DNA from: Candidatus Gorgyraea atricola
Lineage (GTDB): Bacteria > Omnitrophota > Gorgyraeia > Gorgyraeales > Gorgyraeaceae
Assembly (NCBI GenBank): GCA_030765235.1
Contig: JAVCCW010000029.1
Location: forward strand, 12,939-76,938
Length of the DNA: 64,000 nucleotides
Direction of reading: 5' to 3'
Every line of letters starts with the position of its first letter. Position 1 is the first letter of the stretch. Shown in pieces: positions 1,976 to 18,081 of the stretch. A model generated the notes under the pieces. That model saw nothing but the letters and a program-made list of their open reading frames with translations. It was not told the origin of the DNA and did not search any database. A program made the translations under genes and the position numbers.

Positions 1976-2797
1976 GTGAAAAACGGGACAGAAAATAATT
2001 CCAGCCTATATAAAAAGCCGGTCCTTACTACTAAGGAAGCCGCGAAGTTATTGAAGGTCGGCGTCCAAACCATTAAGAATTACATCTACCAGGGAAAAAT
2101 CAAATCTTTTAAGACTCCGGGCGGTCATCACCGCATTCTTCGCTCTGATCTGCCTGCCCAGCTCGAAGAGACTTTTATGGCAGAGCTGAAAAACGGAACA
2201 GAGCAACTCATCAGGACCAATGGCGCTAAAGCAGCCCATGATACTCACGAGAGCTATCTTGTCATTATCAAGGCGCTGGTAAAGGCACTGGAGATGAGAG
2301 AGACACGCGATGACTCGCATCTGGATTTCGCGGCAAAGTGTTCTTTAAAAATGGCTCAGCGCCTGGATCTTCCTGAAGAGGAAAAAAAGAATCTTGAACT
2401 CGCGGCGCTTTTACGTGACATTGGAAAGATCGGAGTGAGTGAACAGATCCTTGGAAAACCGGGAAAACTCACTGAACAGGAATTCATGGTTATAAAGGAA
2501 CACCCGAAGATCGCGGAACGAATAGTGAGTGACATAGAATTTTTAGAAAAGACAAAACCTTTAGTAAGGCATCATCATGAAAGAATGGATGGCAGTGGAT
2601 ATCCTGATGGACTTAGCGGAAAAAATATTCCTTTAGGCGCGCGCATAATCGCGATAACAGGGGTGTATCAGGCATTAATATCTGACCGGCCTTACAGAAA
2701 GGCATACAGCGAAGAAGACGCAAAGGCCATAATAAAGAAAAGTTCTGGATCCCAGTTTGATCCAAAACTGGTTGATCTGTTCTTTGAAGTAACATAA
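1976..2797 (+). CDS. Excisionase-type HTH DNA-binding domain fused to an HD-GYP phosphohydrolase (putative c-di-GMP phosphodiesterase/regulator).
   Basis: N-terminus 'TTKEAAKLLKVGVQTIKNYIYQGKI...TPGGHHRI' is an MerR/excisionase-like HTH. HD-GYP motifs are 'LRDIGKIGV', 'HPK' and 'HHERMDGSGYPDGL'. Confidence 0.8.
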   Translation: MKNGTENNSSLYKKPVLTTKEAAKLLKVGVQTIKNYIYQGKIKSFKTPGGHHRILRSDLPAQLEETFMAELKNGTEQLIRTNGAKAAHDTHESYLVIIKALVKALEMRETRDDSHLDFAAKCSLKMAQRLDLPEEEKKNLELAALLRDIGKIGVSEQILGKPGKLTEQEFMVIKEHPKIAERIVSDIEFLEKTKPLVRHHHERMDGSGYPDGLSGKNIPLGARIIAITGVYQALISDRPYRKAYSEEDAKAIIKKSSGSQFDPKLVDLFFEVT

Positions 2798-2921
2798 AAG
2801 AGAATTTTTTTTGAACAAATACCGTCTAAAACCGATAGTTTCGATAAGAAGCGACATAATTGTGCAAGTAAGTAAATCGTATAAAATCGATAATGCCCAA
2901 AAAGAAACATTTAAAAAATAG

Positions 2922-2950
2922 TTGACACCCAGAGCAACCAGTGCTAATAT
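2922..2950 (+). promoter_or_regulatory. Sigma70-like promoter: TTGACA, 17-nt spacer, TAATAT.
   Basis: TTGACA at 2922-2927 and TAATAT at 2945-2950. Confidence 0.35.
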
Positions 2951-3027
2951 CAGAAACACAATACGTAACATTAAACAATTCGGATTTCATGAACCTACTA
3001 TCTAAATATATTTGGACAGTAAACTAT

Positions 3028-3068
3028 AAGGCGAAGATTTCTCTAAAGGAATCTCCGCCTTTTTTATT
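3028..3068 (+). terminator. Intrinsic terminator-like hairpin plus T-run in the leader of the first repeat-protein gene.
   Basis: Stem AAGGCGAAGATT / AATCTCCGCCTT with one mismatch, followed by TTTTTTATTT. Confidence 0.45.
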
Positions 3069-3113
3069 TATAAAAACAGAAAGCGTTTACAAGTGATTCA
3101 AAAGGAGAATACC

Positions 3114-6100
3114 ATGAAGAAATTATTCGCAATTATGCTTACAGTATCAATTAGCTTATTTCAAATAATGCCGGTTCTAGCTGAACCGGTTTTTTTATCT
3201 GATAAGGACATGGATAGTGTAGTGGCAGGCTACATTGAAGAAAACACCCTGACCATGACAGATGATAGCCAGCGCGATTTAAAAGCTCTTAGCAATGTAA
3301 ATGATGTTGACTCAGCAGTAGCAGCGCAGTCAAACGTCACGTTTGGCGGATTTGATGTGGAAAGTTACAACAGCGCCGCAGTAGAAAATAATGATGCGGA
3401 TCCAGGCATAACATTATTAGAAAGTATAGAATCTAATAATTCCCTTAGCCTAACTGATTTTGCGCAGGCTGAACTCCTTGCGCTCAGCAATGTAAACTCT
3501 GTTGACTCTGCAAACGCGGTCCAGTCCAATATCACAGTGTGCTCACAGTTTCCTTTGAGCGAAAATAAAGCAGACGTAGTTAACATAGATGCTGATAGCG
3601 AAGAAGAGATAGACGCCATTAACACCCTTTCACTCTCAGGCAGTGCTCAGACTTCACTGCATGCCCTTAGCAACCTTAACTCAGTAGACTCAGCAGTGGC
3701 AGTACAGTCGAATGCGAATTTCTGCGGAGAGAGCGTAGTAAATTCTAACATCGCTTGTGTAGATAATTTTAATGGTGATGCGGGTGATGTAGATACCTTG
3801 GATGATAACCCGCATTCACTCTCGATCATAGACAATGCACAGGAAAACCTGGCAGCATTCAGTAATGTCAATGCAGTTGACTCAGCTGTGTGCGTACAGC
3901 TCAATACCTCTATTAATATAAGAGAGGACGCCACTAACACAAATGACGGCTATGCCACGAATAACTCCACGCATCAGGCCAACTACATGGATCGCGACAA
4001 TGACCTTTATATAGCTGGCAATGGCCAGGCAGGCACAAGCGGCATTGTAAGCATAAACGCGGTAGACTCCGCGGAACTCGCGCAGGTAAACATTACAGTC
4101 TTCAGCGGCACAATAGGCGTGATGGACACAAACATCGTGCGCATAGTTTTAAATGATGACGGCGTTACATCAGGAACAGACTGGGATACTGACACCAACA
4201 CCATGACGCTCACTGGCAATGCTCAGCAGGGCCTTATAGCGCTCCACAATGAAAACCTCGTGGACTCAGCAGCCACCATAGAAGGAAACTACGGCGCGTT
4301 TGGCTACAATGACTTTAGATTCAACGAGGCCTATCTTATTAATAAAGACAAGGACTCCTATATATACGCGTCAGTCAATAGAATGGATCTTTCAGAAAAT
4401 GCCCAAAAGGATGTCCAGGTCGTAAGTAACCTGAACGCAGTAGACTCTGCGCCTGGCGTACAGACAAACATTACTTATGATGCGCACTGGGCCATTGGCG
4501 AAAACTATGCTGAGGCTACTAATAATGACGGCACATCCAGCTATTGGACTGATACAGATAATTCGCTTACCATGTCTGGCAGCGCACAGGAAGACTTAAC
4601 AGCGCTCACAAGCACAAACTCAGTTGACTCTGCGTCTATGGTGCAGACAAACCTATTTGCCTTAACTGCCAGTATGTCAACCGCTGTGAATGAAGCAACT
4701 ATCCTAAATACAGACGGCAGTGCCAATGGCGACTCCTGGGGCATAACCTATAATGTACTGGATCTCTCAGGAGATTCCCAGAGAGGCCTTGTAGCACAGA
4801 GTAATCTTAATGAAGTAGATTCAGCTACCTTGGTCCAAACCAATATTACTGCTGAAGAGGAGCAGGGTACACTTTCTGTAATAAGCTCCTCAAATACAGC
4901 AGACGTGGATAATCTTGATATAGTAACTGAGGATCAAAATGGCTTGCGTTCCTATAATAAGCTTACCATGACTGATAATACCCAGAGATCTTTACATGCC
5001 TTGAGCAATATAAATAGCGTTGATTCTGCTAGTGCTGTGCAGTCTAATCTAACAGTTAATAGCTCCCTGCCACCTATTGACTCAGAGCTAGTAGGGCTCG
5101 AGCTTACTGGTTATGCGCCTCTAGCGCCTATCCAGACTGAGATAGTAGCGCTTGAACTAGCTGGTTTTACTCCTGGCGATGATATTGAGATCGCCTTTCC
5201 TATGATCACAGGTATTGAGCTAAGTGATTATACAGAAATAGGAGACGACATAACCTCTACTAACATTGCTACAGTAGACAATATTGATGGTACAGCATAC
5301 TGGATGGATGTGCCTGAAGGCGAGATAATGAATCTTTTGAAACTCTCAGGCAATAGCCAGAGGAATCTCAGCGCGCTCTCAAATCTCAACACAGTTGATT
5401 CAGCCAATGCAGTCCAGATCAACATCGTATACGGAAATGGCGCAGGTATCGCGTCAAGCAACACTGCTACAGTAAAGAATGACGATGGCTCTACTAATTT
5501 TATGGGTTCACTAGAAGACGGCGGCGTGAGTGATGACACAAATAGGCTTAGACTTGTAGATAATGTACAGAGAAAACTCGAGGCATTAAGCAATGCCAAT
5601 ACAGTAGATTCAGCTACAGCAGTGCAGGCAAATCTCGCTGTAGGCGTATCAAGCTCTACGCAGACCAATACCGCGGATGTCTTAAATCAGGGTAGAGATA
5701 TCCTGGGAGAAGACATGACAGACCCGAAGAATCGCTTGACCTTAAAAGACAATGCACAGAGAGGACTAACTGCGCTAAGTAACCTTAACTCAGTTGACTC
5801 TGCTAACACAGTCCAGTCCAATATTACTATAAACAATACTGAAGGAGAAGCAGGAGGCATTACAAATGTGAGCGTGAACAAGACATATGCAGCGTTTGAT
5901 ATAGACTGCAGGATATCTCGCGAAAGACGTCATGCACCTGATATTGAACCTTGCGTTGACATCTCTTGCTGCCCTATATGGTATCTTGGAATAGAGTCAG
6001 AGCCTGGCACAAGAAACTATGGTAATGATGCAAAGAATACACTTAAGCTTGAAGGTGAGGCCCAGATGAAACTTACCGCGCTCAGTAACCTCAATGCTGT

Positions 6101-6965
6101 TTCCAGCGCCAGCGCAGTGCAGTCAAATATCACTGCGAATAAGATAGGTACAGTCACAGGCCCGATTGAAAATTTCAGCCTGAACATAGCTTCTGTTGAG
6201 AATATAACTGAAGATGGAGATAATACACTTAAGCTGCAAAACAAGGCCCAGAAAGACCTGTTAGCGCTCAGTAATGCTAATAGCGTTGACTCTGCCAATG
6301 CAGTGCAGTCGAATATCAGTATCAATGGCTCAGAAAATATCAGCATAAACAAGGCTGATGTGTATAATTCCAGCGGGGACAATCTCTGGCCAGAGAAGAA
6401 AACTGATAAGCTCACTATCAAAAACCACGCCCAGGAGGATCTAACTGCGCTCAGTAACCTTAATACAGTCTCATCAGCTAATGCAGTACAGTCTAACATT
6501 ACCGCGAATAATGTTACAGGCAGCGCCCTTAATGTAAGCGTGAACATTGCGCAGGTAAAAAATGCTCGCGGCACAGGTGAAAATAAACTCATACTTAAAA
6601 ACAAGGCGCAAAGAGGACTCACAGCTCTCAGCAACGTAAACTCTGTAGAAAGCGCAAATGCTGTGCAGTCCAACATCAGTGTCACCTCAACTGAGGATGT
6701 AGAAGCATGCGTTTCCAATATCAGCGCGAACTTCGCGAATGTCGAGAATAAAGATGAGGACGAAAATGAAGCGGATAAGCTCAATACCTTGAGCCTATCT
6801 AACCATGCGCAGCAGAATCTCATGGCACTCAGCAACTTAAATACAGTAAGCAGCGCAACAGCTGTGCAGTCCAACGCCGCGGTATCAAACGCTGCAGGTA
6901 TAAATATCAGCATGAACAATGCCCGAGTAGTTAACTCAGGCAGTTTTAACAACATAAGCGATTAA
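3114..6965 (+). CDS. Secreted giant repeat protein, paralog A: 18 copies of the repeat 'L-x-L-x-[DG]-x-AQ-x-x-L-x-ALSNLN-x-VDSANAVQSNIT', with a Cys-rich central module.
   Basis: RBS AAGGAG then ATG at 3114 (the ORF track's first Met at 3093 is probably upstream of the true start). Signal peptide MKKLFAIMLTVSISLFQIMPVLA. Repeats counted directly in the translation. Central module is 'CVDISCCPIWYLGIESEPGTRNYG'. Confidence 0.8.
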   Translation: MKKLFAIMLTVSISLFQIMPVLAEPVFLSDKDMDSVVAGYIEENTLTMTDDSQRDLKALSNVNDVDSAVAAQSNVTFGGFDVESYNSAAVENNDADPGITLLESIESNNSLSLTDFAQAELLALSNVNSVDSANAVQSNITVCSQFPLSENKADVVNIDADSEEEIDAINTLSLSGSAQTSLHALSNLNSVDSAVAVQSNANFCGESVVNSNIACVDNFNGDAGDVDTLDDNPHSLSIIDNAQENLAAFSNVNAVDSAVCVQLNTSINIREDATNTNDGYATNNSTHQANYMDRDNDLYIAGNGQAGTSGIVSINAVDSAELAQVNITVFSGTIGVMDTNIVRIVLNDDGVTSGTDWDTDTNTMTLTGNAQQGLIALHNENLVDSAATIEGNYGAFGYNDFRFNEAYLINKDKDSYIYASVNRMDLSENAQKDVQVVSNLNAVDSAPGVQTNITYDAHWAIGENYAEATNNDGTSSYWTDTDNSLTMSGSAQEDLTALTSTNSVDSASMVQTNLFALTASMSTAVNEATILNTDGSANGDSWGITYNVLDLSGDSQRGLVAQSNLNEVDSATLVQTNITAEEEQGTLSVISSSNTADVDNLDIVTEDQNGLRSYNKLTMTDNTQRSLHALSNINSVDSASAVQSNLTVNSSLPPIDSELVGLELTGYAPLAPIQTEIVALELAGFTPGDDIEIAFPMITGIELSDYTEIGDDITSTNIATVDNIDGTAYWMDVPEGEIMNLLKLSGNSQRNLSALSNLNTVDSANAVQINIVYGNGAGIASSNTATVKNDDGSTNFMGSLEDGGVSDDTNRLRLVDNVQRKLEALSNANTVDSATAVQANLAVGVSSSTQTNTADVLNQGRDILGEDMTDPKNRLTLKDNAQRGLTALSNLNSVDSANTVQSNITINNTEGEAGGITNVSVNKTYAAFDIDCRISRERRHAPDIEPCVDISCCPIWYLGIESEPGTRNYGNDAKNTLKLEGEAQMKLTALSNLNAVSSASAVQSNITANKIGTVTGPIENFSLNIASVENITEDGDNTLKLQNKAQKDLLALSNANSVDSANAVQSNISINGSENISINKADVYNSSGDNLWPEKKTDKLTIKNHAQEDLTALSNLNTVSSANAVQSNITANNVTGSALNVSVNIAQVKNARGTGENKLILKNKAQRGLTALSNVNSVESANAVQSNISVTSTEDVEACVSNISANFANVENKDEDENEADKLNTLSLSNHAQQNLMALSNLNTVSSATAVQSNAAVSNAAGINISMNNARVVNSGSFNNISD

Positions 6966-6976
6966 TCGTAGACCCC

Positions 6977-7011
6977 TGTCATTGCGAGGCCCAGCCTTGT
7001 GTCATTGCGAG
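6977..7011. repeat. Two direct copies of TGTCATTGCGAG, belonging to the second palindromic repeat family (TGTCATT/AATGACA termini).
   Basis: Seen at 6977-6988 and 7000-7011. Related sequences occur at 11477-11500, 17211-17270 and 41511-41574. Confidence 0.4.
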
Positions 7012-7152
7012 CGAAGCGAAGCAATCTCAATAACAGGACGTAAACTCCCTATACCAGGCCTAAAAAGGTGGCCTTTAACCACCAACATGGGAGAGAGGCC
7101 TTAAAATAGATCGGTGAAACATGGTGAAGTTAAAAACAAGGAGGAGAAAGTA

Positions 7153-10100
7153 ATGAGAAAGTTAGTATCGATTATCGCAGCTTTAAGTATCATTTTCTCA
7201 GGCGCTATTTCTCCAGTATTAGCAGCTGAAGTCCTGACAGACGAAGGCTTGGACTCTATTGTTGCAGGCGACCTTCCAGTCGGCGCTACTTTAGAGAACA
7301 ATACCTTAGATCTAAAAGAACAATCTCAGAGGTTCTTCAAAGGTCTAAGCAATGCAAATACTGTAGATTCAGCAAATGCAGTACAGTCAAACGTTACTAT
7401 GACAGGTGGCGGTCTGGCTGTAAGTATGAACGCAGCTGATGTTGACAACTTGGACGGTTTGAATGATGATTATTATGGCAGAGAGCAGAACAATGATCTG
7501 AAATTAAAAGATGATGCACAGAGCGGTTCATCAGGGTATCCACCAGCTGATGTTGGACAGGATTTCTTCGCAGCTTTGAGCAATCTCAACACTGTTGACT
7601 CTGCTAATGCTATCCAGTCAAACATCACTGCTGGTAATGATGACAAATTCAGCGGCAACAATGCTGATGTATTGAATGATGATGGTACGACTACTTGTCA
7701 CGTAGAGACTAACAATCTGATGATACTCAAAGACCAGGCACAGAATAGGCTTTGGGCACTCAGCAATGTTAACACAGTTGATTCAGCAAATGCTGTCCAG
7801 TCAAACATCACTGTGAATACAGGTGTTACTGGTGATAATGTAGCTGATGCTACAAGTCGTAACTGTGCTATAGTAGAGAATGCAGATGGCACATCAGTTG
7901 CAGAACCACTGCCAGAAACTGAACCTGCAAAACTGGTTAACAACAAGCTGGTCATAGACAATACTGCTCAGGCAGAACTCATGGCACTAAGCAACTTAAA
8001 CACAGTTGATTCTGCTAATGCAGTTCAGTCAAACATCAGTATTCATGGCGCAGATAATAACAATCAAAACCAGGCAGAGGTGCTTAATGAAGATGGTATA
8101 GCACCAACTGGTCAGAAGATTTTGAACAACACCTTAAAGATCAAGGATCAGGCACAGCATGATTTAATTGCACTCTCGAACTTGAATGCAGTTGATTCAG
8201 CAAGTGCTGTTCAGTCTAACATTACCTATGCTCATTGTAAAAACATCAATACTAACAAGGCTGATGTTGAGAACAATGATGGTGGAGTTGGAGTGGGTGT
8301 AGTAGATTCAAGCGGCAACCCAATGGATCCAGTAGTAGATAACAATGACGCACTTTCTCTTGGGACAAATGTCCAGGGTGGCCTTACTGCGCTTAGCAAT
8401 ATCAATTCAGTTGATTCTGCTAATGCAGTTCAGTCAAATATCACTGTTAATGACAGTGATTATGAAGGAACAGCAGGGCCAACAAAGGTGTTGAATATTA
8501 ACAAGAACATAGCTGGTGTTTTAAACACTGATGCTGATCCAGAGACAGATGGTGGAAATAATTCCATACTGCTCGGAGGCTTAGCTCAGAGCGGACTTAT
8601 GGCACTCAGCAATATTAATACCATTGATTCTGCTAACACAGTCCAGTCCAATGTCACTGTAAATAATACAGTTGGCGATGTTGGAGAGATTCACAACATA
8701 AGTAAGAATGAGGCCTTTGCATCATTTGACCTTTACTACCATGGTGGTTGCTGTGGCGGAAATGGTATAGATGATGGCGGATGTGTTGACATTAACTGTC
8801 CACCAATAAGTTGCATAGGTATAATTTCTGAACCTTGCACAAAGAACTATGCAGGTGATGGGAATAATATCCTTACACTTGAGGGTAGTGCACAGATTGG
8901 CTTAATGGCACTAAGTAACCTCACAGCTGTTTCCAGTGCAAGCGTTATACAATCCAACATTACTGCCAATGGTATTGGTAAGGAAGATGATGGATCTGGA
9001 ACAATGGTTGGAAGCGCAAATAATGTCAGAAACTTCAGTGAGAACATAGCTTCTGTTTGGAATTCTAGTGGAACAGGAGACAATACTCTTGAGTTAATGG
9101 ACAATGCACAGCAAGGTCTTTGTGCGCTCAGCAATGTTAACACAGTTGATTCAGCAAATGTTGTTCAGTCAAATATTACTGTAACAGCAGATGATGTGAA
9201 TCTTTGTGCTGAAGTTGGCTGGAATGTGGACTTTGATCGGCTTGTTTTAGGTCTTTGCCCGCAGGGCGACTCATTACTTGCTATTCAGTATCCTGATCTA
9301 GGAGAAATAGGACCAGATCTCTTAGGTGCTCTTAACAATAACATGTTTACATCTGCCACTATCAATGGTTTTGCACCTGATACAGAAAGCTGGATTTTCT
9401 TCAGGAGTTCATTAGGCAATCCGTCATGGGTCAATTGCTTAAAGCATATGTTTAAAGGTAAAGCGCTTTTAAACTACAGCATGAACGCAGCTGATGTCTA
9501 TGATGCAAGCGGTGACTCTCCGGAAGACAGTACAACTGATTTACTTACCATTGAAGTCAGCGCTCAGAAAAATCTAAGCGCATTGAGCAATCTCAACACA
9601 GTTGGTTCTGCAAATGCAGTTCAGTCAAATATAACTGTAAACTGGGTTGGCGGTGAGCTTAACAATGGACTTGTCAGCATCAATGCAAATCTTGCTAAAG
9701 TCCAAAATGCTGCTGGTATTGGAGAAAATAAGATGAAGCTAGCAGGCAGTGCCCAGGAAGAGCTAACAGCATTGAGTAATCTTAACACGGTTGAAAGCGC
9801 AAATGCAGTTCAGTCCAACGTCACACTTACCAGGGCATCAGGCGCAAGCGAAACATGCTTTGGTTGTGAAGGTGCTGCAATGGCATGTACTTTCAATTTG
9901 AATTCTGCTGAGGTTAGAAATTATGATAAGGTTAGAGATGTTGTTCAAGAAACTCCTATAGATGTACCTGATAGGGTTAATTCTTTGAAACTATCTGGTA
10001 TGGCACAGCAAAACCTTATCGCATTAAGTAACCTTAATGCAGTAAATTCAGCAACAGCTGTTCAGTCAAACATAACAGTGAGCAGCGGCATAGGCATGAA

Positions 10101-10155
10101 TGTTAGTGTCAATACCGCATGCGTATCAAACGTAGGTAGAAGTTTTGCAGATTAA
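7153..10155 (+). CDS. Secreted giant repeat protein, paralog B: 12 copies of the same ALSNLNTVDSANAVQSNIT-type repeat, with a Cys-rich central module.
   Basis: RBS AAGGAGG then ATG at 7153. Signal peptide MRKLVSIIAALSIIFSGAISPVLA. N-terminal motif 'LTDEGLDSIVAG' is shared with paralog A ('LSDKDMDSVVAG'). Module 'CVDINCPPISCIGIISEPCTKNYAG' is homologous to that of paralog A. Confidence 0.8.
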   Translation: MRKLVSIIAALSIIFSGAISPVLAAEVLTDEGLDSIVAGDLPVGATLENNTLDLKEQSQRFFKGLSNANTVDSANAVQSNVTMTGGGLAVSMNAADVDNLDGLNDDYYGREQNNDLKLKDDAQSGSSGYPPADVGQDFFAALSNLNTVDSANAIQSNITAGNDDKFSGNNADVLNDDGTTTCHVETNNLMILKDQAQNRLWALSNVNTVDSANAVQSNITVNTGVTGDNVADATSRNCAIVENADGTSVAEPLPETEPAKLVNNKLVIDNTAQAELMALSNLNTVDSANAVQSNISIHGADNNNQNQAEVLNEDGIAPTGQKILNNTLKIKDQAQHDLIALSNLNAVDSASAVQSNITYAHCKNINTNKADVENNDGGVGVGVVDSSGNPMDPVVDNNDALSLGTNVQGGLTALSNINSVDSANAVQSNITVNDSDYEGTAGPTKVLNINKNIAGVLNTDADPETDGGNNSILLGGLAQSGLMALSNINTIDSANTVQSNVTVNNTVGDVGEIHNISKNEAFASFDLYYHGGCCGGNGIDDGGCVDINCPPISCIGIISEPCTKNYAGDGNNILTLEGSAQIGLMALSNLTAVSSASVIQSNITANGIGKEDDGSGTMVGSANNVRNFSENIASVWNSSGTGDNTLELMDNAQQGLCALSNVNTVDSANVVQSNITVTADDVNLCAEVGWNVDFDRLVLGLCPQGDSLLAIQYPDLGEIGPDLLGALNNNMFTSATINGFAPDTESWIFFRSSLGNPSWVNCLKHMFKGKALLNYSMNAADVYDASGDSPEDSTTDLLTIEVSAQKNLSALSNLNTVGSANAVQSNITVNWVGGELNNGLVSINANLAKVQNAAGIGENKMKLAGSAQEELTALSNLNTVESANAVQSNVTLTRASGASETCFGCEGAAMACTFNLNSAEVRNYDKVRDVVQETPIDVPDRVNSLKLSGMAQQNLIALSNLNAVNSATAVQSNITVSSGIGMNVSVNTACVSNVGRSFAD

Positions 10156-10177
10156 TTAGCACCTAAAGTAACATTGT

Positions 10178-10203: not shown

Positions 10204-10216
10204 ACAAGCACACATA

Positions 10217-10252
10217 ACTTTACATTTGAAGCAAGACCTTAAATGTAAAGTT
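10217..10252. repeat. Second hairpin: AACTTTACATTT ... AAATGTAAAGTT.
   Basis: 12-bp inverted repeat. The TTTACA/TGTAAA hairpin type recurs next to the REP copy at 11414-11434. Confidence 0.4.
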
Positions 10253-10278
10253 AAACATTGAAATAGAGGTGAATTGAC

Positions 10279-10671: not shown

Positions 10672-10696
10672 TAGGCCAGGTTTAAACCTGGCCTAC
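10671..10696. repeat. REP palindrome, consensus copy.
   Basis: GTAGGCCAGGTTTAAACCTGGCCTAC. Confidence 0.85.
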
Positions 10697-10716
10697 GTGG
10701 CACCAGGTGGAATATT

Positions 10717-11412
10717 ATGAGAAAGCATAACAGTATATTTATATTTGTCTTTATTTTAGCGATGTCTTTAGTAGCAGAGCCTTGCTTTGCTGCTAGTATT
10801 GGCATTGCAGGCAGGATAAACAAGAACGTAAAGAGTCTCAAAGAGATACGTCATCAGAATATTGAAGCTCAGAGTCTGGATTACTCCTGTGGTCCGGCGT
10901 CTCTAGCTACTCTTCTGAGCTATTACTTCGGCGATAAAGTCACCGAAGTAGACGTACTCGAGACGCTCCTTACGACCTGCGACATTGAAAAGGTAAAGGC
11001 AAAGAAGGGCTTTTCGCTCTTAGACCTGAAACGTTTTGCCCAGTCCCGCGGCTACGATGTAGTCGGCTATAAGATGGACCTGGAGTTTCTCGTTGAGCTC
11101 GATAAGCCAGTCTTGATCCCCGTGAGTATAAAGGACTACTCGCATTTTGTTATATTCCGGGGGCTAGAGGGCGATCGCGTGTTCATAGCTGACCCAGTAC
11201 TGGGCAACATGACCATGCGCTACGAGAAGTTCGAGAGGATCTGGGAAGGCGGCATAGGCCTGGTGCTTAATGGCAGAGACGATGAGAAACTAAAAGACTC
11301 TCCTTTAAGGATAAGCGGCCAAGAAGAGGCAGTTTTCGCGGACGCTACGACTGTACGAAGGCTATTCGGAGTAAATTCCCTAGGCACCATCTTCGCGGAT
11401 GGCGAGTTCTAA
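10717..11412 (+). CDS. Periplasmic peptidase C39-like domain protein (stand-alone, with a signal peptide).
   Basis: Signal peptide. Catalytic-Cys motif 'QSLDYSCGPASLATLLSYYFG' and a downstream His 'DYSHFVIF', as in double-glycine/C39 peptidase domains. Confidence 0.6.
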   Translation: MRKHNSIFIFVFILAMSLVAEPCFAASIGIAGRINKNVKSLKEIRHQNIEAQSLDYSCGPASLATLLSYYFGDKVTEVDVLETLLTTCDIEKVKAKKGFSLLDLKRFAQSRGYDVVGYKMDLEFLVELDKPVLIPVSIKDYSHFVIFRGLEGDRVFIADPVLGNMTMRYEKFERIWEGGIGLVLNGRDDEKLKDSPLRISGQEEAVFADATTVRRLFGVNSLGTIFADGEF

Positions 11413-11413
11413 A

Positions 11414-11459
11414 CTTTACACTTTAAGTGTAAAGTAGGCCAGGTTTAAACCTGGCCTAC
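11414..11459. repeat. TTTACA/TGTAAAG hairpin followed by a consensus REP.
   Basis: CTTTACACTTTAAGTGTAAAG then GTAGGCCAGGTTTAAACCTGGCCTAC. Confidence 0.8.
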
Positions 11460-11476
11460 AGTTACTGTTGTAATGG

Positions 11477-11496
11477 ATTCCCGCTTTCGCGGGAAT
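11477..11496. repeat. Palindrome ATTCCCGC-TTTC-GCGGGAAT (second repeat family core).
   Basis: Perfect 8-bp stem. An expanded version is at 17211-17266. Confidence 0.5.
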
Positions 11497-11550
11497 GACA
11501 AAGTTAACGGTTGACATATACCTATAATTTGTGGTATAAAGTCTATAGCC

Positions 11551-12465
11551 ATGAGACATTTGATGGTATTTTTTATTCTCTGGAGTAGTATGTTTCTTGC
11601 TGCACCCATCAGCATAGGCGCTAGCCTGGCTGAAGAGCAAAGGGAAATAGAGGGGGTAGTAGTAGGGTATTACTCTGCCAAGATCAGCTGGGCAACAGAT
11701 GAGCCAGCTACTTCACAGGTAGACTATGGCACATCAGGGTTTATATATGAACAGAGTTCCCCAGAGCGCAACAGCCTATTAATCAATCACGAGATAATCC
11801 TGAGCAACCTCAAGCCATCTACCCTATATCATTACAGGATAAGGAGTAAGGACGCTTTTGGCAATGAGGGTGTGAGCCAGGACCTTACATTTAAGACTCT
11901 GGATTTCTCCATAGCTGATAATAAAGCACCCACTATATCTAATATAAAGGTAGCCTCTCTTGCAGGCGTAAAAGAGCCTACCTATTTATCAGATGAGGAG
12001 GCAGCTGCTATTATAGGTGCAGGCCCGGCAGCGCCTAAAGGCAATTTCCCGGGTGGTAAGATAATTGCAGTAGCAAAGGCAAAACCAAAAGCAGAACCAA
12101 AGGCAGAGACAAGGCATATACAGGAGGGATCTGAGCCTGCAGCTTCAGGCATGATCCATTCAGCAGGTCAGCTTACTAAGCACGAAGCGCCAGTGGAAAA
12201 GACGCTTGTGCAAAAGGGCGGATTACTCATGCCTAAAGGCACATGGCAGTATGAGCCAAGTTTTGCCTATGCTCATACATCAGCAAATCGTATTGCCATA
12301 AGCGGATTTACAGTGCTGCCGGTTCTAATAATAGGAAGCATTTCCGTAGACGAAGTAAAAAGGGACATACTTATACAAACCAATACCTTTCGCTATGGGT
12401 TATTTAATAATTTCCAGGTAGAAGTAAAGGTCCCATCCCATATAGGTATCAATACGAGCGTATAA
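11551..12465 (+). CDS. Secreted FN3-like domain protein with an Ala/Pro/Lys-rich linker. It appears to be the N-terminal part of a frameshifted FN3 + outer-membrane beta-barrel gene.
   Basis: Signal peptide. 'KPSTLYHYRIRSKDAFGNEG' is FN3/purple-acid-phosphatase-N-like. Linker 'KAKPKAEPKAE'. C-terminal beta-strand-like segments run into the next ORF. Confidence 0.55.
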   Translation: MRHLMVFFILWSSMFLAAPISIGASLAEEQREIEGVVVGYYSAKISWATDEPATSQVDYGTSGFIYEQSSPERNSLLINHEIILSNLKPSTLYHYRIRSKDAFGNEGVSQDLTFKTLDFSIADNKAPTISNIKVASLAGVKEPTYLSDEEAAAIIGAGPAAPKGNFPGGKIIAVAKAKPKAEPKAETRHIQEGSEPAASGMIHSAGQLTKHEAPVEKTLVQKGGLLMPKGTWQYEPSFAYAHTSANRIAISGFTVLPVLIIGSISVDEVKRDILIQTNTFRYGLFNNFQVEVKVPSHIGINTSV

Positions 12466-13043
12466 CCACAGCAGACAATATAGAAACTACAGATAATCTG
12501 TCTGGACTTGGTGATATTGAGGCAGGATTATATAAGCAGATAGCGTTTGAGCATGGATGGGTACCAGATCTAATAGCTGGGGTCAGTGTAAAGTCAGACA
12601 GCGCCGATAAAAGCCCTTATGAGAATCCAGGAGATATTGGCTTAGGAACAGGGCACTGGGCAGTAAAAGGGAGCCTGGTGTGGGTAAAGTCAAGCGACCC
12701 GGCGATTGTCTTTGGTGGATTGAACTATACATGGAATATGGAAGATGATATTACAAATTACGGCAAGATAAATCCTGGAAATACTATTGGATATTCTCTT
12801 GGAATGACCTTTGCCTTGAATTACCAGGTAGCATTAAACCTGGGCGTGGACCAGAGCGTTACCGAAAAGATGAAAATAGATGACACTCCAGTAAATGGCT
12901 CATTTACTAATGTAGCCAGTTTTAAATACGGTTTTGTCTGGTCTGTAAACAAGAACTTTTCCTGTGATGTATCCGCAACACACGGCCTAACAGAAGACTC
13001 ACCTGACATGGTCCTGGAAGTCCGCTTCCCGTATACCTTCTAA
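12411..13043 (+). CDS. Outer-membrane beta-barrel C-terminal domain (MetA/transporter-like), ending in Phe. It continues the previous ORF in a different frame.
   Basis: Frame 0 is open from 12411, overlapping the 304-aa ORF, whose stop is at 12463-12465. Amphipathic alternating strands and a C-terminal 'RFPYTF'. Confidence 0.55.
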   Translation, partial: FPGRSKGPIPYRYQYERITTADNIETTDNLSGLGDIEAGLYKQIAFEHGWVPDLIAGVSVKSDSADKSPYENPGDIGLGTGHWAVKGSLVWVKSSDPAIVFGGLNYTWNMEDDITNYGKINPGNTIGYSLGMTFALNYQVALNLGVDQSVTEKMKIDDTPVNGSFTNVASFKYGFVWSVNKNFSCDVSATHGLTEDSPDMVLEVRFPYTF

Positions 13044-13051
13044 ACCCAACA

Positions 13052-13209: not shown

Positions 13210-13238
13210 TTGACAAGACAGCGTTTACATGGTATACT
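13210..13238 (+). promoter_or_regulatory. Sigma70-like promoter: TTGACA, 17-nt spacer, TATACT.
   Basis: TTGACA at 13210-13215 and TATACT at 13233-13238, upstream of the EPS outer-membrane protein gene. Confidence 0.4.
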
Positions 13239-13286
13239 TTCGTTCAATACCGTATAAAACCGTAGTAACTAAACGAGAGGTGGTTC

Positions 13287-14459
13287 ATGAAGAAAGTATG
13301 TAAAATTGTATTAAGTTTGTGCTTTTTGGCTTCCATTCTTGTAATTAACTCCACATTATATGCTGCAGAAGGATTAAAGATAGGCGATGCAGAGATCATC
13401 CCTTGGGGTGAAGTGCGACTTCAGTATGATGACAACATATTCCTGGATTCTGATGATGAAAAGGATGACATTATAGTCACGCTTGTGCCAGGTGTATCTC
13501 TTGAATGGCCATTCAGTGATAATCTTCTAAAGCTTGACTATCACGCGGAGATCACAGAGTTTATGGATTATGGCTCAAATGATGCCACGAACCATTATTT
13601 CTCCGGAGACCTGGAGGTAGAATTGCAGGACCTTACCTTTAATATATATGATGACTATAAGCATGTATATGAAAGGGCGTCCACAGAGGATACCTTAAGG
13701 ATCAAGAGGGAAGACAATACTATAGGTATCAGGGCTGGCCTGGAAAAGGATCGGCTTGGTGTACAGCTTGGTTATGAGCATTTTACTCGTGATTACAAAG
13801 ACGAAGATACTTATGATATTTATGACAGAAAAGAGGATATTTATTCCGCGGTCCTTACCCACCAGACATTCGCAAAGACAAAACTTCTGGCAGAATATGA
13901 TTTCGGGCAGATCAGGTATGATAGTTCCACCCGTTCAGACTCAGACTACCACCAGTTTCTTGTTGGCGCAATAGGCGAACTGACTCCAAAAACTACAGCT
14001 ACTGTAAAAGCAGGTTATCAGTTCAGGGAGTACGATGATAGCACCCAACCTGATTTTGATACAGGAGTGCTTTACGCGGATCTGACACACGAATTTTCAG
14101 AAAAAGATGCTCTTAAGCTTTCACTGACCAGGACAGCTTACGAGTCCACTTATGATATAAATAATTATTACACTGTAGAGAATGTAACCGCGATATACGA
14201 CCACTATTTCACTGCAAAACTACTTGGTTTTGTAAACGGCATATACCAGGTCAATTCCTATCCTCGAGAGACTACAGAAGGGACTGAGACACACAAGAGA
14301 GAAGACAGGTATGCTTCTTTGGGCGCTGGTTTCAGGTATTATATGCAAGAATGGCTGACATTTACTATGCAGCTCGAGCATATAGACAGGGATTCTAATT
14401 TTGATACATTTGATTACGAACAGAATCTAGCCACACTTACTGCAAAGGCGGTATTCTAA
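13287..14459 (+). CDS. Outer-membrane beta-barrel protein of the EPS export locus (PEP-CTERM-locus-type putative OMP).
   Basis: Signal peptide, Asp/Tyr-rich amphipathic strands and a C-terminal '...AKAVF'. Located immediately upstream of wza/wzc. Confidence 0.6.
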   Translation: MKKVCKIVLSLCFLASILVINSTLYAAEGLKIGDAEIIPWGEVRLQYDDNIFLDSDDEKDDIIVTLVPGVSLEWPFSDNLLKLDYHAEITEFMDYGSNDATNHYFSGDLEVELQDLTFNIYDDYKHVYERASTEDTLRIKREDNTIGIRAGLEKDRLGVQLGYEHFTRDYKDEDTYDIYDRKEDIYSAVLTHQTFAKTKLLAEYDFGQIRYDSSTRSDSDYHQFLVGAIGELTPKTTATVKAGYQFREYDDSTQPDFDTGVLYADLTHEFSEKDALKLSLTRTAYESTYDINNYYTVENVTAIYDHYFTAKLLGFVNGIYQVNSYPRETTEGTETHKREDRYASLGAGFRYYMQEWLTFTMQLEHIDRDSNFDTFDYEQNLATLTAKAVF

Positions 14460-14460
14460 C

Positions 14461-15027
14461 TTGCGATATTTAACCTTTCTATTAGCGCTAACTCTAGTAC
14501 TGAATCCTTTCACACTCCTTGCTGAAGAGTACAAGGTCGATACAGGGGATGTGCTTCTTATCACTGTGTATGAGCAGGCAGACCTTACTACTAAGGTGCG
14601 CGTTAGCTCAAAAGGCGAGATCACCTTTCCTCTGATTGGTACTGTAAATGTAAAGGACCTCACAGTGGAAGAGATAGAGAAAAAGATAATGGTCTCACTT
14701 AAAAAAGACTACCTCGTAGACCCTCAGGTCAATGTCTTTATAGAAAAATATACAGAGAAGAAGGTATTTGTAATGGGTTTTGTAAATAGGCCAGGCGAAT
14801 ATGAGCTTTTTAAAGACCGTCCTACCACAGTGCTTGAGGCAATTACTATGGCAGGCGGTTTTAAAGAAGGCGCAGCTCAGAACGGAACCAAGGTACTGCG
14901 CGTAGATAATGGCCAAGAACTCACCATAGCTATAAAAGTAACAGACATCACGAAAAAGGGCGATAAAGAAAAGGACATCCCTGTAAAACCAGGAGATATT
15001 GTTGTCGTGCCAGAGAGTTTCTTTTGA
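14461..15027 (+). CDS. wza: Polysaccharide export protein, Wza/KpsD/EpsA family (Poly_export + SLBB).
   Basis: 'PGDIVVVPESFF', 'VDTGDVLLITVYEQ' and 'GEITFPLIGTVNVKDLTVEEIEKKI'. TTG start. Confidence 0.8.
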   Translation: MRYLTFLLALTLVLNPFTLLAEEYKVDTGDVLLITVYEQADLTTKVRVSSKGEITFPLIGTVNVKDLTVEEIEKKIMVSLKKDYLVDPQVNVFIEKYTEKKVFVMGFVNRPGEYELFKDRPTTVLEAITMAGGFKEGAAQNGTKVLRVDNGQELTIAIKVTDITKKGDKEKDIPVKPGDIVVVPESFF

Positions 15028-15057
15028 ACACAGATGATCGCAGATGAAAGGATATAG

Positions 15058-17118
15058 ATGATCACAGATGTAACTAAGAACATACATATGCGTGATTACC
15101 TTAATATAATAAGTCGCAGGAAATGGCTCGTCATAAGCTTTTTCCTGATCACTGTTACGCTCGTGACAGTGACATCTTTCATGCAGAAAAAGGTCTACAG
15201 GGCCACTGCCACAGTAATAGTGGATGTGGAAGGCCCGAGTGTCCTGGCGGTAAAGGATGTTGTTAAGCTCGGTGAGACCAATTATTTTGCATACCGCGAT
15301 TACATAGAGACCCAGCAGGAGATAATAAGGGGCAGGCGCACTGCCTACCGTGTCATGAAGAACCTGGGATTGATCAAAAAAGAAGAGTTTAGCGAATCCA
15401 AAGACCCTATACAGACACTTCTGGAAAAGGTAAAGGTAGAGCTATTGCGTGATACAAGGATCATCAATGTACGCGCAGAAGATAACGATCCTAATCTGGC
15501 CAGCCGCATCGCGAATGAGTTTGCCAAGGTCTATGTTGATTCCAACATAGCTATGAAGATGAAGATGTCGCAGGATGCTCAGGATTGGTTAGGAAAAGAG
15601 GTTGATATCCAGAAGAAAAAGGTAAGAGAAGCAGAACTGAAACTTCAGGCTTACAAGGAACAAAATAGTATTGTTTCCATAGAGAACCAGGAGGCCATGA
15701 TCGATGATGGCCTGGCTAAACTGAATTCCAGTTATCTGGCAGCGCAGGAGCGAAGGATAGGCGCAGAGACTACCTATAATAGCCTTATTGATAGCAGTGG
15801 AAATGTGGCCATGGAAAATCTGCCATCGCTTTTAACAGACAATAAGTCCTTACAGTTATTAAAGGACGATTACCTGAAGCAAGAGGCGCTTTTAGTCGAA
15901 TATAAGAAGATCTACAAGTATAAGCATCCTAAGATGATAAAGCTCTCAGAGAATATAGATTATCTTAAATCTCGCCTGAAGAGCGAGATAGGGAATGAAT
16001 ATAATAGCGCAGTCGCGGAGGAAAAAAAGTTTAAGATGGCTCTTGCCGAACAAAAGAAAGAGGCCCTGGGATTAGAGCGTAAGATCATAGAGTACAGTGC
16101 CTTAGATAGAGAAGTAGAGACCAATGACCGTATTTTAGAGATCGTACTCAATAGACTCAAAGAGACATCTATCTCCAGCCAGATACAGGCGAATAATGTA
16201 CGAGTGCAGGATCTGGCAGAGCCTCCCATAAAACCAATAAAACCAAAGAAAAGAATAAATATCATACTTTCCATGATCGTGGGTTTGATGGGCGGCATAG
16301 TCCTCGCGTTTTTCAGGGATTATATGGACATCAGTTTAAAAAATCCCAATGAGATAGCCAGTGTGCTTCAGATACCTTTACTAGGGTCTGTGCCTAAGGT
16401 TAAATTAGACGGGAATCGTATCAGGAAAAAGGCTGATATCGACCGTGTTGTTGAAAAGGATTCGGCTTCACTGGCTTCAGAGGCCTACCGTTCAATAAGG
16501 ACAAATCTTTTATTCTCGCTAAACCATTCAGGCTCTTCAAAGAGTATAGTTGTAACAAGTTCTGTACCCAAAGAAGGAAAAAGCATTACTGCGGTGAATC
16601 TCGCGCTCATGATAGCTAATAGTGGAGAAAGAGTGCTTTTAGTAGACGCTGACATGAGAAGGCCAAGACTTCATACAGTATTTAATGATGATAATTCAAT
16701 AGGCCTTACGCAGTTTTTATCAAAAGAAGCGGACTTTGAAAGTGTAGTCAAACCTTCCGGCATAGATAATCTAAGCATAGTCACTTCAGGAGGCACTATT
16801 GGCAGTTCCGCGGAATTGATCTCTTCAGAACAGATGAAAATTTTCATAGAAAAGGCATCATCTGGATTTTCAAAGATCATCTTTGATACACCACCTATAG
16901 CCTTAGTTACAGACGCGGCATTGCTCTCGAGTATCTGTACAGGGGTGCTCCTGATAGCTGAAGGCGGCAGGGCAACAAAGGATTTATTGATAAAATCCAA
17001 AGGACTCTTAGAAAAGGTAGACGCGAAGATCTTAGGCGTCATAGTCAATAATATATCTCTTACCAGCGATAGTTCCTACCAGCAGTATTACTACGGAAAG
17101 ACTTACGGTAAAACTTAA
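15058..17118 (+). CDS. wzc: Chain-length determinant / BY tyrosine autokinase (Wzc/EpsG-like).
   Basis: Two transmembrane segments, a coiled-coil periplasmic region, Walker A 'VTSSVPKEGKSITAVNLA', 'LLVDADMRRP', Walker B 'IFDTPP' and a C-terminal Tyr cluster 'YQQYYYGKTYGKT'. Confidence 0.85.
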   Translation: MITDVTKNIHMRDYLNIISRRKWLVISFFLITVTLVTVTSFMQKKVYRATATVIVDVEGPSVLAVKDVVKLGETNYFAYRDYIETQQEIIRGRRTAYRVMKNLGLIKKEEFSESKDPIQTLLEKVKVELLRDTRIINVRAEDNDPNLASRIANEFAKVYVDSNIAMKMKMSQDAQDWLGKEVDIQKKKVREAELKLQAYKEQNSIVSIENQEAMIDDGLAKLNSSYLAAQERRIGAETTYNSLIDSSGNVAMENLPSLLTDNKSLQLLKDDYLKQEALLVEYKKIYKYKHPKMIKLSENIDYLKSRLKSEIGNEYNSAVAEEKKFKMALAEQKKEALGLERKIIEYSALDREVETNDRILEIVLNRLKETSISSQIQANNVRVQDLAEPPIKPIKPKKRINIILSMIVGLMGGIVLAFFRDYMDISLKNPNEIASVLQIPLLGSVPKVKLDGNRIRKKADIDRVVEKDSASLASEAYRSIRTNLLFSLNHSGSSKSIVVTSSVPKEGKSITAVNLALMIANSGERVLLVDADMRRPRLHTVFNDDNSIGLTQFLSKEADFESVVKPSGIDNLSIVTSGGTIGSSAELISSEQMKIFIEKASSGFSKIIFDTPPIALVTDAALLSSICTGVLLIAEGGRATKDLLIKSKGLLEKVDAKILGVIVNNISLTSDSSYQQYYYGKTYGKT

Positions 17119-17210
17119 TTTCTGATTTTTGCATTAGAGAACAAGGGGGATCGTCTTAGCATGAAGCGATTAAAAAAACATAAAATCAATTAAAATCGAA
17201 AGCATAATGG

Positions 17211-17266
17211 ATTCCCGCTTTCCCCGTACCATTCGCTTCGCTCAGGTACGGGGCACGCGCGGGAAT
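17211..17266. repeat. Composite palindrome: ATTCCCGC ... GCGGGAAT with an internal CCCCGTACC ... GGTACGGGG hairpin.
   Basis: Expanded version of the element at 11477-11496. Confidence 0.5.
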
Positions 17267-17279
17267 GACAGCAACAATA

Positions 17280-17305
17280 GTAGCCCAGGTTTAAACCTGG
17301 GCTAC
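17280..17305. repeat. REP palindrome variant: GTAGCCCAGGTTTAAACCTGGGCTAC.
   Basis: Perfect palindrome with compensatory changes in both arms. Confidence 0.8.
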
Positions 17306-17322
17306 CAAAAAGGAGAAAAATC

Positions 17323-18081
17323 ATGAAAAAGAAATTCGAAGGAGATGTTTATTTTACACCAAAGCAGGCTGCAGAGTATTTTAATCTGAGTCTGTCTACT
17401 ATTAAGAATTACATCTATGCGGGCAAGCTTAGGACGCTAAAGACGCCAGGGGGCCATCACAGGATCAGCAAGGCTGAACTCTTTGCTACCCTGGATCACG
17501 GGGTCGCATCCAGCGACTCGCTTTCTTCAGCTATATTCCTGTCCAACATCACCATGGCCTTATTCAATGCGATCGGCCCTGCAGGAAAATCCCTATCCCT
17601 GCATGTGCAGAATGTCTCTGAGCTATGCAGTCAGATAGCAAAGAAGCTGGGCTTAAGCGATCTAGATCTAAATCGCATAAAAATAGCAGGCCTTGTCCAT
17701 GACATAGGGCATATAGGCATAGACAAGAGCATACTTTTAAAATCAGGGCCATTGAGCGCCCAGGAATATGAATTAATAAAGAAACACCCGACACTGGGCC
17801 ACCAGACATTGAGTTCGATAAAAGAATTGAACGGCATCGCGGACCTTGTGATCCAGCATCATGAGAGGATAGACGGGACTGGTTACCCAAAAGGCCTTAA
17901 AGGAAGTGACATCCATGTGGGCGCGCGCATTATAGCTATTGCAGAGGCGTATGATTCAATGGTCTCAGAGCATTCGTATAAGACGCCTGTTTCAAAGAAC
18001 AAGGCCATAGCTGAGCTTATGCAGCATAAGGGCACGCAGTTTGATAAAGATATCGTGGAGATCTTTACTAAGATCATATGA
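17323..18081 (+). CDS. Second excisionase-type HTH – HD-GYP protein, paralogous to 1976-2797.
   Basis: 'TPKQAAEYFNLSLSTIKNYIYAGKL...TPGGHHRI', 'HDIGHIGI' and 'HHERIDGTGYPKGL'. Confidence 0.8.
   Translation: MKKKFEGDVYFTPKQAAEYFNLSLSTIKNYIYAGKLRTLKTPGGHHRISKAELFATLDHGVASSDSLSSAIFLSNITMALFNAIGPAGKSLSLHVQNVSELCSQIAKKLGLSDLDLNRIKIAGLVHDIGHIGIDKSILLKSGPLSAQEYELIKKHPTLGHQTLSSIKELNGIADLVIQHHERIDGTGYPKGLKGSDIHVGARIIAIAEAYDSMVSEHSYKTPVSKNKAIAELMQHKGTQFDKDIVEIFTKII

Follow-up and report, generated by a model that had tools for sequence, protein, structure and literature searches.

Two winged helix-turn-helix/HD-GYP proteins as predicted regulators of an exopolysaccharide and fibre locus in Candidatus Gorgyraea atricola

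In a 64,000-nucleotide stretch of Candidatus Gorgyraea atricola DNA (Omnitrophota; contig JAVCCW010000029.1, positions 12,939 to 76,938; hereafter the window), two genes, here named W1 and W2, encode a helix-turn-helix (HTH) domain fused to an HD-GYP domain. An initial annotation, made from the sequence alone, had taken them to be a duplicated pair of DNA-binding cyclic di-GMP (c-di-GMP) phosphodiesterases dedicated to a matrix locus, which raises the question of whether such proteins are enzymes, transcription regulators or both. Of the c-di-GMP enzymes, those of the HD-GYP type are the least well understood and, to our knowledge, PdeL, which carries an EAL domain, is the only DNA-binding phosphodiesterase studied so far. 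The analysis described below favours, with a probability of about 0.62, the reading that both proteins act as one-component regulators of transcription at the matrix locus, each combining a BldC-like winged HTH with a sensor derived from an HD-GYP domain.

Architecture and relatives of the two proteins

The W1 gene (1976..2797, + strand) has a GTG start and encodes a protein of 273 aa, with a winged HTH and a degenerate HD-GYP domain, while the W2 gene (17323..18081, + strand) encodes 252 aa, in which a short disordered linker separates a winged HTH from an HD-GYP domain. Pfam searches detected HTH_17 in both W1 (E 5.8e-13, aa 16-59, nt 2021-2152) and W2 (E 8.9e-11, aa 10-55, nt 17350-17487), followed by HD_5 (PF13487; W1, E 3.8e-39, aa 102-265, nt 2279-2770; W2, E 1.3e-36, aa 93-244, nt 17599-18054). 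All four matches exceeded the gathering scores, confirming both open reading frames (ORFs) and the fusion at the coordinates given by the initial annotation, and the motifs that it had quoted (TIKNYIY-GK, TPGGHHRI and GYPDGL/GYPKGL) are all present. The N-terminal HTH fold was likewise borne out, both by Pfam and by TIGR01764 ('excisionase family'), whose cut-off both proteins pass, and by AlphaFold models (pLDDT 84.7 for W1 and 87.8 for W2), each of which forms a β-α-α-β-β-α winged HTH and then the HD-GYP domain. The two domains are connected by a long helix in W1 (aa 61-82) and by the disordered linker in W2 (aa 58-63). The classical MerR HTH (PF00376) scored only 22.1 and 17.6 bits for W1 and W2, respectively, against a gathering score of 28.2, and the C-terminal HD-GYP part is unlike the coiled coil and effector-binding domain of classical MerR regulators.

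For both HTHs the best sequence match in the PDB was BldC, ungapped over ~50 aa, and Foldseek comparison of the N-terminal part with BldC gave a TM-score to target of 0.75-0.85. Streptomyces BldC (PDB 6AMA, 6AMK) is a 68-residue MerR-like regulator that forms head-to-tail multimers on variable numbers of ~9-bp direct repeats, each protomer reading an AT-rich minor groove, through a His of the wing, and one C-G pair. This minor-groove residue (His46, in the GGH wing) aligns with the first His of GGHH in W1 and W2, so that the GGH(R/H)R wing is shared, while at the recognition helix K26 and R30 of BldC are replaced by S/Q and N. BldC stands alone without a sensor domain, unlike W1 and W2, which scored 35.0 and 30.9 bits with the BldC family model NF033787 (NCBIfam cut-off 77) and are therefore not members of the BldC family proper. 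Among 234 members of their own family, otherwise only ~35% identical, KNYIY of the recognition helix never varies (100%) and the residues of the wing TPGGHHRI are conserved at 94-100%, which predicts a common DNA site.

Database searches with W1 or W2 returned, besides an entry 100% identical to each, hundreds of proteins that share the HTH_17 + HD_5 architecture and are named only 'HD domain-containing protein' or 'excisionase family DNA binding protein / HDIG'. When genomes were scanned, one for each GTDB species, at least 380 relatives were detected, from which 78 loci were kept. All 78 come from metagenome-assembled or single-cell genomes, assigned to Omnitrophota (some labelled Planctomycetia), Thermodesulfobacteriota/Syntrophobacterales, Ratteibacteria and Elusimicrobia, together with metagenome-assembled genomes labelled Clostridia. 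No description of an HTH + HD-GYP fusion was found in the literature searched, and the running text of a review of HD-GYP architectures, as distinct from its Table 3, which is an image, does not mention fusion to a DNA-binding HTH. Judged from these sequences, the literature searched has left undescribed a large family that is, among the members found, confined to uncultured lineages. The fusion is thus noteworthy for not having been described, as the initial annotation had suspected, but it is not rare, being common in uncultured phyla.

The relatives were divided into group g1, with W1 and ~12 close relatives (13 members), group g2, with W2 and ~100 relatives, and group g3, a broad set of proteins of ~266-290 aa that includes the Thermodesulfobacteriota members. 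Alignment of W1 with W2 (BLASTP, 35% identity over 256 aa, end to end, E 1e-54) establishes that they are paralogues. W1 is ~50% identical to the g3/Thermodesulfobacteriota members as against 35% to W2, which makes this an old paralogy between two separate clades and not a local duplication; of the noted duplication, the paralogy therefore stands, while its recent, local origin does not. A metagenome scan for more W1 orthologues found only generic soil HD-GYP domains that match from about residue 60 to 273 (most from 97) and lack the HTH. Some proteins (P0239, P0241, P0242, P0258 and P0282) carry 3-5 tandem copies of the same HTH subtype in one chain, as would be expected of protomers that are joined covalently and read direct repeats in tandem.

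Repeat arrays and conserved gene neighbourhoods

A phased repeat of ~10-bp units with the consensus AYCGTRTAAA occurs in the window only at 2821-2895 and 13249-13268, that is, in both of the intergenic regions that the initial annotation had named. It forms three candidate operator arrays, all on the + strand. Array A (2821..2860) comprises four ~10-bp direct repeats (ACCGTCTAAA, ACCGATAGTT, TCGATAAGAA and GCGACATAAT), lies 60-100 bp upstream of the -35 element of Rep1, the repeat-protein gene that follows W1, and is conserved in the related locus L006. Array B (2876..2895) has two repeats (ATCGTATAAA and ATCGATAATG) and ends 27 bp upstream of the same -35 element, which belongs to a promoter-like site (2922..2950, + strand, TTGACA-17-TAATAT, extended TG) also conserved in L006. 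Array C (13249..13268), with two direct repeats (ACCGTATAAA and ACCGTAGTAA), is located in the epsL leader and begins 11 nt after the -10 element (13238) of the epsL operon promoter-like site (13210..13238, + strand, TTGACA-17-TATACT, TG-extended), which is conserved across Omnitrophota loci. The position of array C is matched in L007, L009, L012, L016, L018 and L074, and in L019 at up to 2 mismatches. The 17-mer AATACCGTNTAAAACCG has exactly two copies in the window, one in the W1-Rep1 spacer (2818) and one in the epsL leader (13246), and the looser pattern AYCGTNTAAAAYCG gave three exact matches in 64 kb (2821, 2876 and 13249) when 0.22 were expected, a number that no shuffle reached.

The motif, defined from the window, was then tested on 80 dereplicated other loci, allowing at most one mismatch. 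Regions were counted as near when they lay no more than 200 nt upstream of a family gene, 120 nt downstream of one or 150 nt upstream of epsL. Such DNA (29.4 kb) contained 23 matches, as against none in the remaining non-coding DNA (75.8 kb) and 7 in the coding DNA (1.03 Mb). In agreement with this, a de novo count of 7-mers in 20 upstream regions of distant-member and stand-alone-HTH loci placed AAATCGT, CGTGTAA and CGTATAA as the most enriched words after the -35 element. Loci of distant members and of stand-alone HTHs carry 2-3 tandem units (TTTAYACGRT) between the -10 element of the HTH gene and its start codon; these are oriented oppositely to the copies in the epsL leader, which favours a site acting at the level of DNA over one acting in RNA. 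The presence of such repeats ahead of HTH genes suggests autoregulation.

To place these arrays in context, we compared the gene neighbourhoods of the family. In the window, two large repeat proteins, a small ORF, a C39 peptidase, a FapF-like gene, EpsL, Wza and Wzc are encoded between W1 and W2, so the genes do flank the repeat-protein genes and the exporter, as had been noted. The genes epsL (BBP2_2 outer-membrane protein), wza (Poly_export/SLBB) and wzc (Wzz/GNVR/AAA_31, tyrosine kinase) span 13287..17118 (+ strand), and W2 is adjoined by a Wzy_C-TPR-CBM60 gene (18078..20564, + strand) whose ATG overlaps the W2 stop codon (ATGA), making translational coupling of the two genes probable. The exopolysaccharide (EPS) genes continue to ~41 kb, with a second Wzy_C protein, a flippase, glycosyltransferases, an acetyltransferase, a deacetylase, a UDP-glucose dehydrogenase and a WbaP-like priming transferase. 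In ~20 Omnitrophota loci (50-82% identity), judged where enough flanking DNA was available, the g2 gene always occupies the interval between wzc and the Wzy_C-TPR gene, in the order EpsL-Wza-Wzc-W2-WzyTPR. In L007, L009 and L167 the epsL promoter is immediately preceded by the g1 gene, which in L005, L006 and L168 is placed directly ahead of a Rep-like gene; in L067 it lies upstream of a cluster with C39 and FapF-like genes. The contexts of the two genes therefore differ, W2 being internal to the EPS operon, while W1 stands at the 5' edge of an operon or ahead of repeat-protein genes. L007 and L009 retain the bracket that W1 and W2 form around the exporter genes, in the order W1-epsL-wza-wzc-W2-wzy without fibre genes, suggesting that the fibre cluster is a lineage-specific insertion.

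An insertion of this kind would also be expected if the HTH_17 domains were recombination directionality factors that control the excision of a mobile fibre island, a reading with which the TIGR01764 match agrees, as does the lack of a fibre cluster between W1 and epsL in L007, L009 and L167. We regard it as highly improbable, given that no integrase or recombinase lies in or beside the cluster, the sole transposase-like gene of the window being of IS200 type and located at 54.5 kb, that the operon position of W2 is fixed across the ~20 loci, that the HTH-HD-GYP fusion is conserved across phyla, and that, among solved structures, the transcription factor BldC and not Xis is the nearest relative.

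The association with EPS genes extends beyond the close relatives. Distant members (39-42% identity, one from Ratteibacteria) are found immediately upstream of EpsL or Wza, a Syntrophobacterales member is divergent from a Wzc gene, and stand-alone HTHs of 60-73 aa with the KNYIY...TPGGHHRI signature immediately precede EpsL, Wza or a WbaP-like gene. Across these loci, the consistent partner of the EPS genes is the DNA-binding module, and the HD-GYP domain is an add-on. Taken together with the repeats shared by both intergenic regions and enriched beside family genes elsewhere, the synteny across ~20 loci and the stand-alone HTHs ahead of EPS genes support the earlier proposal of DNA-binding regulators dedicated to the matrix locus.

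Both genes also have features of their own upstream. W1 is preceded by a promoter-like site (1935..1964, + strand, TTGACA-18-TATAAT) that matches the consensus at 12/12 positions and whose -35 and -10 elements are conserved in L005 and L006. It ends 12 nt before the GTG start, so that the mRNA would be nearly leaderless; the promoter-to-start distance of the W1 orthologue in L006 is much longer. No promoter of its own was found for W2 by consensus in the wzc-W2 spacer. This spacer contains an A-rich block, TTAAAAAAAnnTAAAAT, that is conserved in three species (window 17150-17200; L001 9935-9975; L003 9945-9975). Upstream of the family gene in L005 (3716-7349; this relative is intermediate, with 57% identity to W1) and in L169 (the W1 orthologue P0132; 305-1872) there are a PocR-GAF protein and a sigma-54 response regulator, and the upstream genes of L005 also include a GAF histidine kinase and a PEP-CTERM protein, which hints at a second, PrsK/PrsR-like layer of control.

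Catalytic and ligand-binding residues of the HD-GYP domains

The fold of the C-terminal part of W1 and W2 matched those of PmGH, PA4781 and DvhD (Foldseek, E 1e-10 to 1e-8). Residues were mapped to PmGH numbering through PDB alignments, in which D305 and D308 of PmGH correspond to E208 and D211 of W2, and were counted in the 234 relatives (g1, n=13; g2, n=101; g3, n=120). The HHExxDGxGYP region reads HHHERMDGSGYP in W1 and QHHERIDGTGYP in W2; its G and Y are invariant and its P has two exceptions among the 234 relatives, GYP being kept in all three groups. Regarding the catalytic motifs on which the initial annotation had relied, GYP is intact in both proteins and HD only in W2 (VHDIG), W1 having RDIGK. 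The motif roles of HD-GYP residues follow Galperin and Chou, and RxxK (R314-K317) is said to set the specificity for c-di-GMP.

In the W1 clade the metal site is degraded. H221, which is kept in g2 and g3, is R or K in all 13 g1 members; D305 is G in W1 (10/13 in g1, with D in 2), as compared with E in 101/101 of g2 and E or D in 113/120 of g3; D308 is Q throughout g1 (13/13) and D in 97/101 of g2 and 117/120 of g3; and H189 is variable in g1 and kept in g2 and g3. Since mutation H221A abolishes the activity of PmGH, the changes H221R/K, D305G and D308Q predict that W1 is inactive as a phosphodiesterase. The binding residues have a different fate in this clade. KPG and R314 of RxxK are kept in g1 (RPYR in W1), K225 is kept in 12/13 members, and D183 is E or D in 12/13 (E in W1). 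Given that W1 retains the KPG, GYP and RxYR motifs for c-di-GMP binding, it is probably a receptor.

W2 shows nearly the reverse pattern. All seven His/Asp metal ligands are present, with D305 as E, while D183 is G in W2 (82/101 in g2) and K225 is H in W2 and H, L, Q or N in g2, where K occurs in 0/101; in g3, D183 is kept in 103/120 and K225 in 119/120. Both D183A and K225A are inactive in PmGH, so that without this pair the activity of W2 is uncertain, and W2 may be a poor or unconventional enzyme. Upstream-type Omnitrophota members at EPS loci likewise tend to lack D183 and K225. At the nucleotide site, R314 is H or Y in g2 (HSYK in W2) and is not conserved in g3, and KPG reads KSG in W2, its P being kept in 113/120 of g3; K235 and K317 are retained in W2. 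Overall, g3 looks canonical, of the binuclear type. The label 'HD-GYP phosphodiesterase' thus fails in that form for W1, whose domain is predicted to be inactive, and the activity it implies is uncertain for W2, in which the metal ligands are kept and the D183/K225 pair is lost.

These residues bear on whether W1 and W2 might instead be mainly phosphodiesterases of c-di-GMP whose HTH is merely a tether to the chromosome or to a partner, lowering c-di-GMP locally near the EPS machinery without any role in transcription. The strong HD_5 scores, the seven metal ligands and GYP retained by W2 and the wider family, the fully catalytic appearance of the Thermodesulfobacteriota clade and the translational coupling of W2 to a Wzy-like membrane protein would all suit such an enzyme. 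It is harder to reconcile with the loss of H221, D305 and D308 in the W1 clade, the first of which is enough to kill PmGH, or with the loss of D183 and K225 in the EPS-linked clades. Moreover, stand-alone HTHs without HD-GYP hold the same place ahead of EPS operons, the DNA-contacting residues are the best conserved part of the protein, and a phased repeat motif co-occurs with the genes. We therefore consider a tethered enzyme quite unlikely.

A further possibility is that, for the W2 clade at least, EPS transcription is coupled by the HD-GYP domain to another signal, either through a di-metal centre (iron, redox, O2 or NO) or through 3'3'-cyclic GMP-AMP (cGAMP) or pGpG. The W2 clade keeps every metal ligand and has lost R314, the KPG proline and D183/K225, the variable replacement of K225 suggests relaxed constraint, and the top PDB sequence match is the cGAMP-specific enzyme V-cGAP3; DvhD also accommodates cGAMP. 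These points are offset by the retention of GYP, K235 and K317 and by the PmGH mutants R314A and K317A, whose activity was only slightly changed. Direct evidence for the sensing of a non-nucleotide signal by any HD-GYP domain was not found, and the full c-di-GMP-binding set of W1 points to c-di-GMP at this locus. Such a signal appears doubtful for the locus, if less so than a tethered enzyme.

Proposed mechanism and the matrix genes under predicted control

In the favoured reading, W1 and W2 as one-component regulators, the HTHs would bind the tandem ~10-bp direct repeats (AYCGTRTAAA), with protomers probably arranged head-to-tail as in BldC. Arrays A and B, upstream of the Rep1 -35 element, occupy an activator-type position and would mediate activation or anti-activation, while array C, just past the epsL -10 element, occupies a repressor-type position and would mediate repression. 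Depending on its nucleotide or metal state, the HD-GYP domain would alter its dimerization or the linker geometry, and hence the occupancy of the repeats by the HTH. W1, with its own perfect promoter and a predicted enzymatically dead domain, would stand at the head of the locus as both a receptor for c-di-GMP and a regulator. W2, which lacks its own promoter and lies inside the epsL operon, would feed back on that operon, whether it works as a trigger-type enzyme or senses without catalysis through a domain that still has a metal centre. As the recognition helix and wing of W1 and W2 are essentially identical, both may load onto the same repeats as mixed head-to-tail filaments. In such filaments one array would integrate c-di-GMP, through W1, with a metal, redox or other-nucleotide signal, through W2, and control the Fap-like giant amyloid or fibre system and the Wzx/Wzy polysaccharide in opposite directions, an extension that we regard as speculative and distinctly improbable.

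Several observations weigh against regulation of the locus by W1 and W2 through c-di-GMP. At the stringent threshold the motif was present in only 20 of the 80 loci, the epsL leader of several W2-type loci (e.g. L001 and L003) lacks it, and a search for a shared word in the upstream regions of the Thermodesulfobacteriota clade (g3) returned A/T runs only. The repeats may be bound by W1, by W2 or by another protein. The members of the family that were found all derive from metagenome-assembled or single-cell genomes or from metagenomic contigs. Some family members, e.g. P0203, are in housekeeping contexts, and the 64-kb window contains no GGDEF or PilZ gene. Finally, without R314, the Pro of KPG, D183 and K225, the ligand of W2 may be other than c-di-GMP, and the best PDB match of both HD-GYP domains by sequence, not only that of W2, is V-cGAP3.

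Among characterized proteins, the closest functional analogue appears to be PdeL (YahA) of E. coli, of which W1 and W2 would be the HD-GYP counterpart. PdeL consists of a LuxR-type HTH and an EAL 'trigger' phosphodiesterase, binds its own promoter and has a transcription-factor activity that is modulated by c-di-GMP. In all three proteins a single chain begins with a DNA-binding HTH and ends with a domain of the c-di-GMP phosphodiesterase type, and the operator-like repeats before genes of the W1/W2 family suggest autoregulation here as well. They differ in that W1 and W2 have an HD-GYP fold instead of EAL and a MerR/BldC-like winged HTH instead of a LuxR one, in that their predicted sites are direct repeats whereas that of PdeL is an imperfect palindrome, and in that W1 is predicted to be inactive; the predicted targets of the pair are EPS and fibre genes. 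Hengge considered that HD-GYP proteins could serve as trigger phosphodiesterases, active enzymes that control a macromolecular target bound to them by binding and turning over c-di-GMP, a possibility for which none had been identified.

A model for the sensor part of W1 is DvhD of Desulfovibrio vulgaris (PDB 9RBZ), a degenerate HD-GYP protein (SQ in place of HD) that binds c-di-GMP but cannot hydrolyse it, and in which ligand binding leads to dimerization and movement of the N-terminal stalk helices. W1 likewise combines a degenerate HD-GYP domain with an N-terminal helix that leads to the output domain, and it retains more of the HHE/GYP core. DvhD is a membrane dCache-PAS-HD-GYP protein with a periplasmic output through protease control, whereas W1 is soluble with a DNA-binding output. 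With PmGH (4MCW), PA4781 (4R8Z) and the RpfG family, W1 and W2 share the fold (Foldseek E 1e-10 to 1e-9) and HHExxDGxGYP, as well as, in W2, the seven metal ligands. Canonical HD-GYP phosphodiesterases carry an N-terminal REC, GAF or PAS domain where W1 and W2 carry a DNA-binding domain, and relative to them D183/K225 are changed in W2 and H221/D305/D308 in W1. Like the sites of BldC, the motif described here consists of direct repeats, which are phased at 10 bp and contain CG and TAAA.

The genes that would come under this control include what looks, from sequence, like an export module for Fap-type functional amyloid (3093-13043), with Rep1 and Rep2 as its cargo. Rep1 (3093..6965, + strand) encodes a secreted protein of 1290 aa with imperfect Q/N-rich repeats ('ALSNLNTVDSANAVQSNIT'), is 53% identical to the product of the gene that follows the W1 orthologue in L006 and is likely a regulated target. 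Its paralogue Rep2 (7114..10155, + strand) encodes a 1013-aa repeat protein. Neither had a Pfam match or a PDB relative, and no tandem repeats were found in the two genes at the DNA level. They are followed by a stand-alone, FapD/FilB-like C39 peptidase gene (10717..11412, + strand) and by a FapF-like outer-membrane transporter gene (11551..13043, + strand), which is split by a frameshift near 12435. The L067 orthologue of the latter is a single ORF of 497 aa, whose residues 7-298 and 297-497 fall in two frames of the window, so the break marks a pseudogene, stems from an error in assembly or is a programmed frameshift.

Searches of the Rep1 and epsL leaders for a riboswitch (c-di-GMP or other) gave nothing at the Rfam gathering score, only sub-threshold small-RNA noise. 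The Rep1 leader contains, between promoter and start codon, a hairpin with a T-run (3030-3070) that has no Rfam match, is conserved in L006 at ~2180-2215 and could be an attenuator or a leader terminator. Directly before the ribosome-binding site of W2 there is a repetitive extragenic palindrome (REP)-like sequence, GTAGCCCAGGTTTAAACCTGGGCTAC (17278..17307, strand not assigned), which, with the promoter-like site ahead of W1, agrees with what had been noted upstream of the two genes. The perfect palindrome GTAGSCCAGGTTTAAACCTGGSCTAC recurs at 11 intergenic sites between 10183 and 56675 of the window (e.g. 13142, 17285, 54489 and 55068). The copies before W2 and near epsL were considered as operators and ruled out, given these 11 copies in unrelated intergenic regions. 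Three of the copies flank the IS200/Y1-transposase-like gene (54533-55015, - strand), suggesting a REP and REP-associated tyrosine transposase (REP/RAYT) system.

For the biology of these organisms, our results provide a first lead on how exopolysaccharide and fibre production is controlled in ultra-small, uncultured Omnitrophota. The family supplies hundreds of candidates for the HD-GYP 'trigger' class suggested earlier and contains a natural series of forms, namely catalytic-looking, metal-site-only, nucleotide-site-only and HTH-only, together with a specific predicted operator, all of which are open to work in vitro without culturing the hosts. Binding to direct repeats in the manner of BldC may extend to sensor-coupled regulators and, if the mixed-filament reading were true, it would represent a new logic for the control of transcription by second messengers, in a phylum without cultured members.

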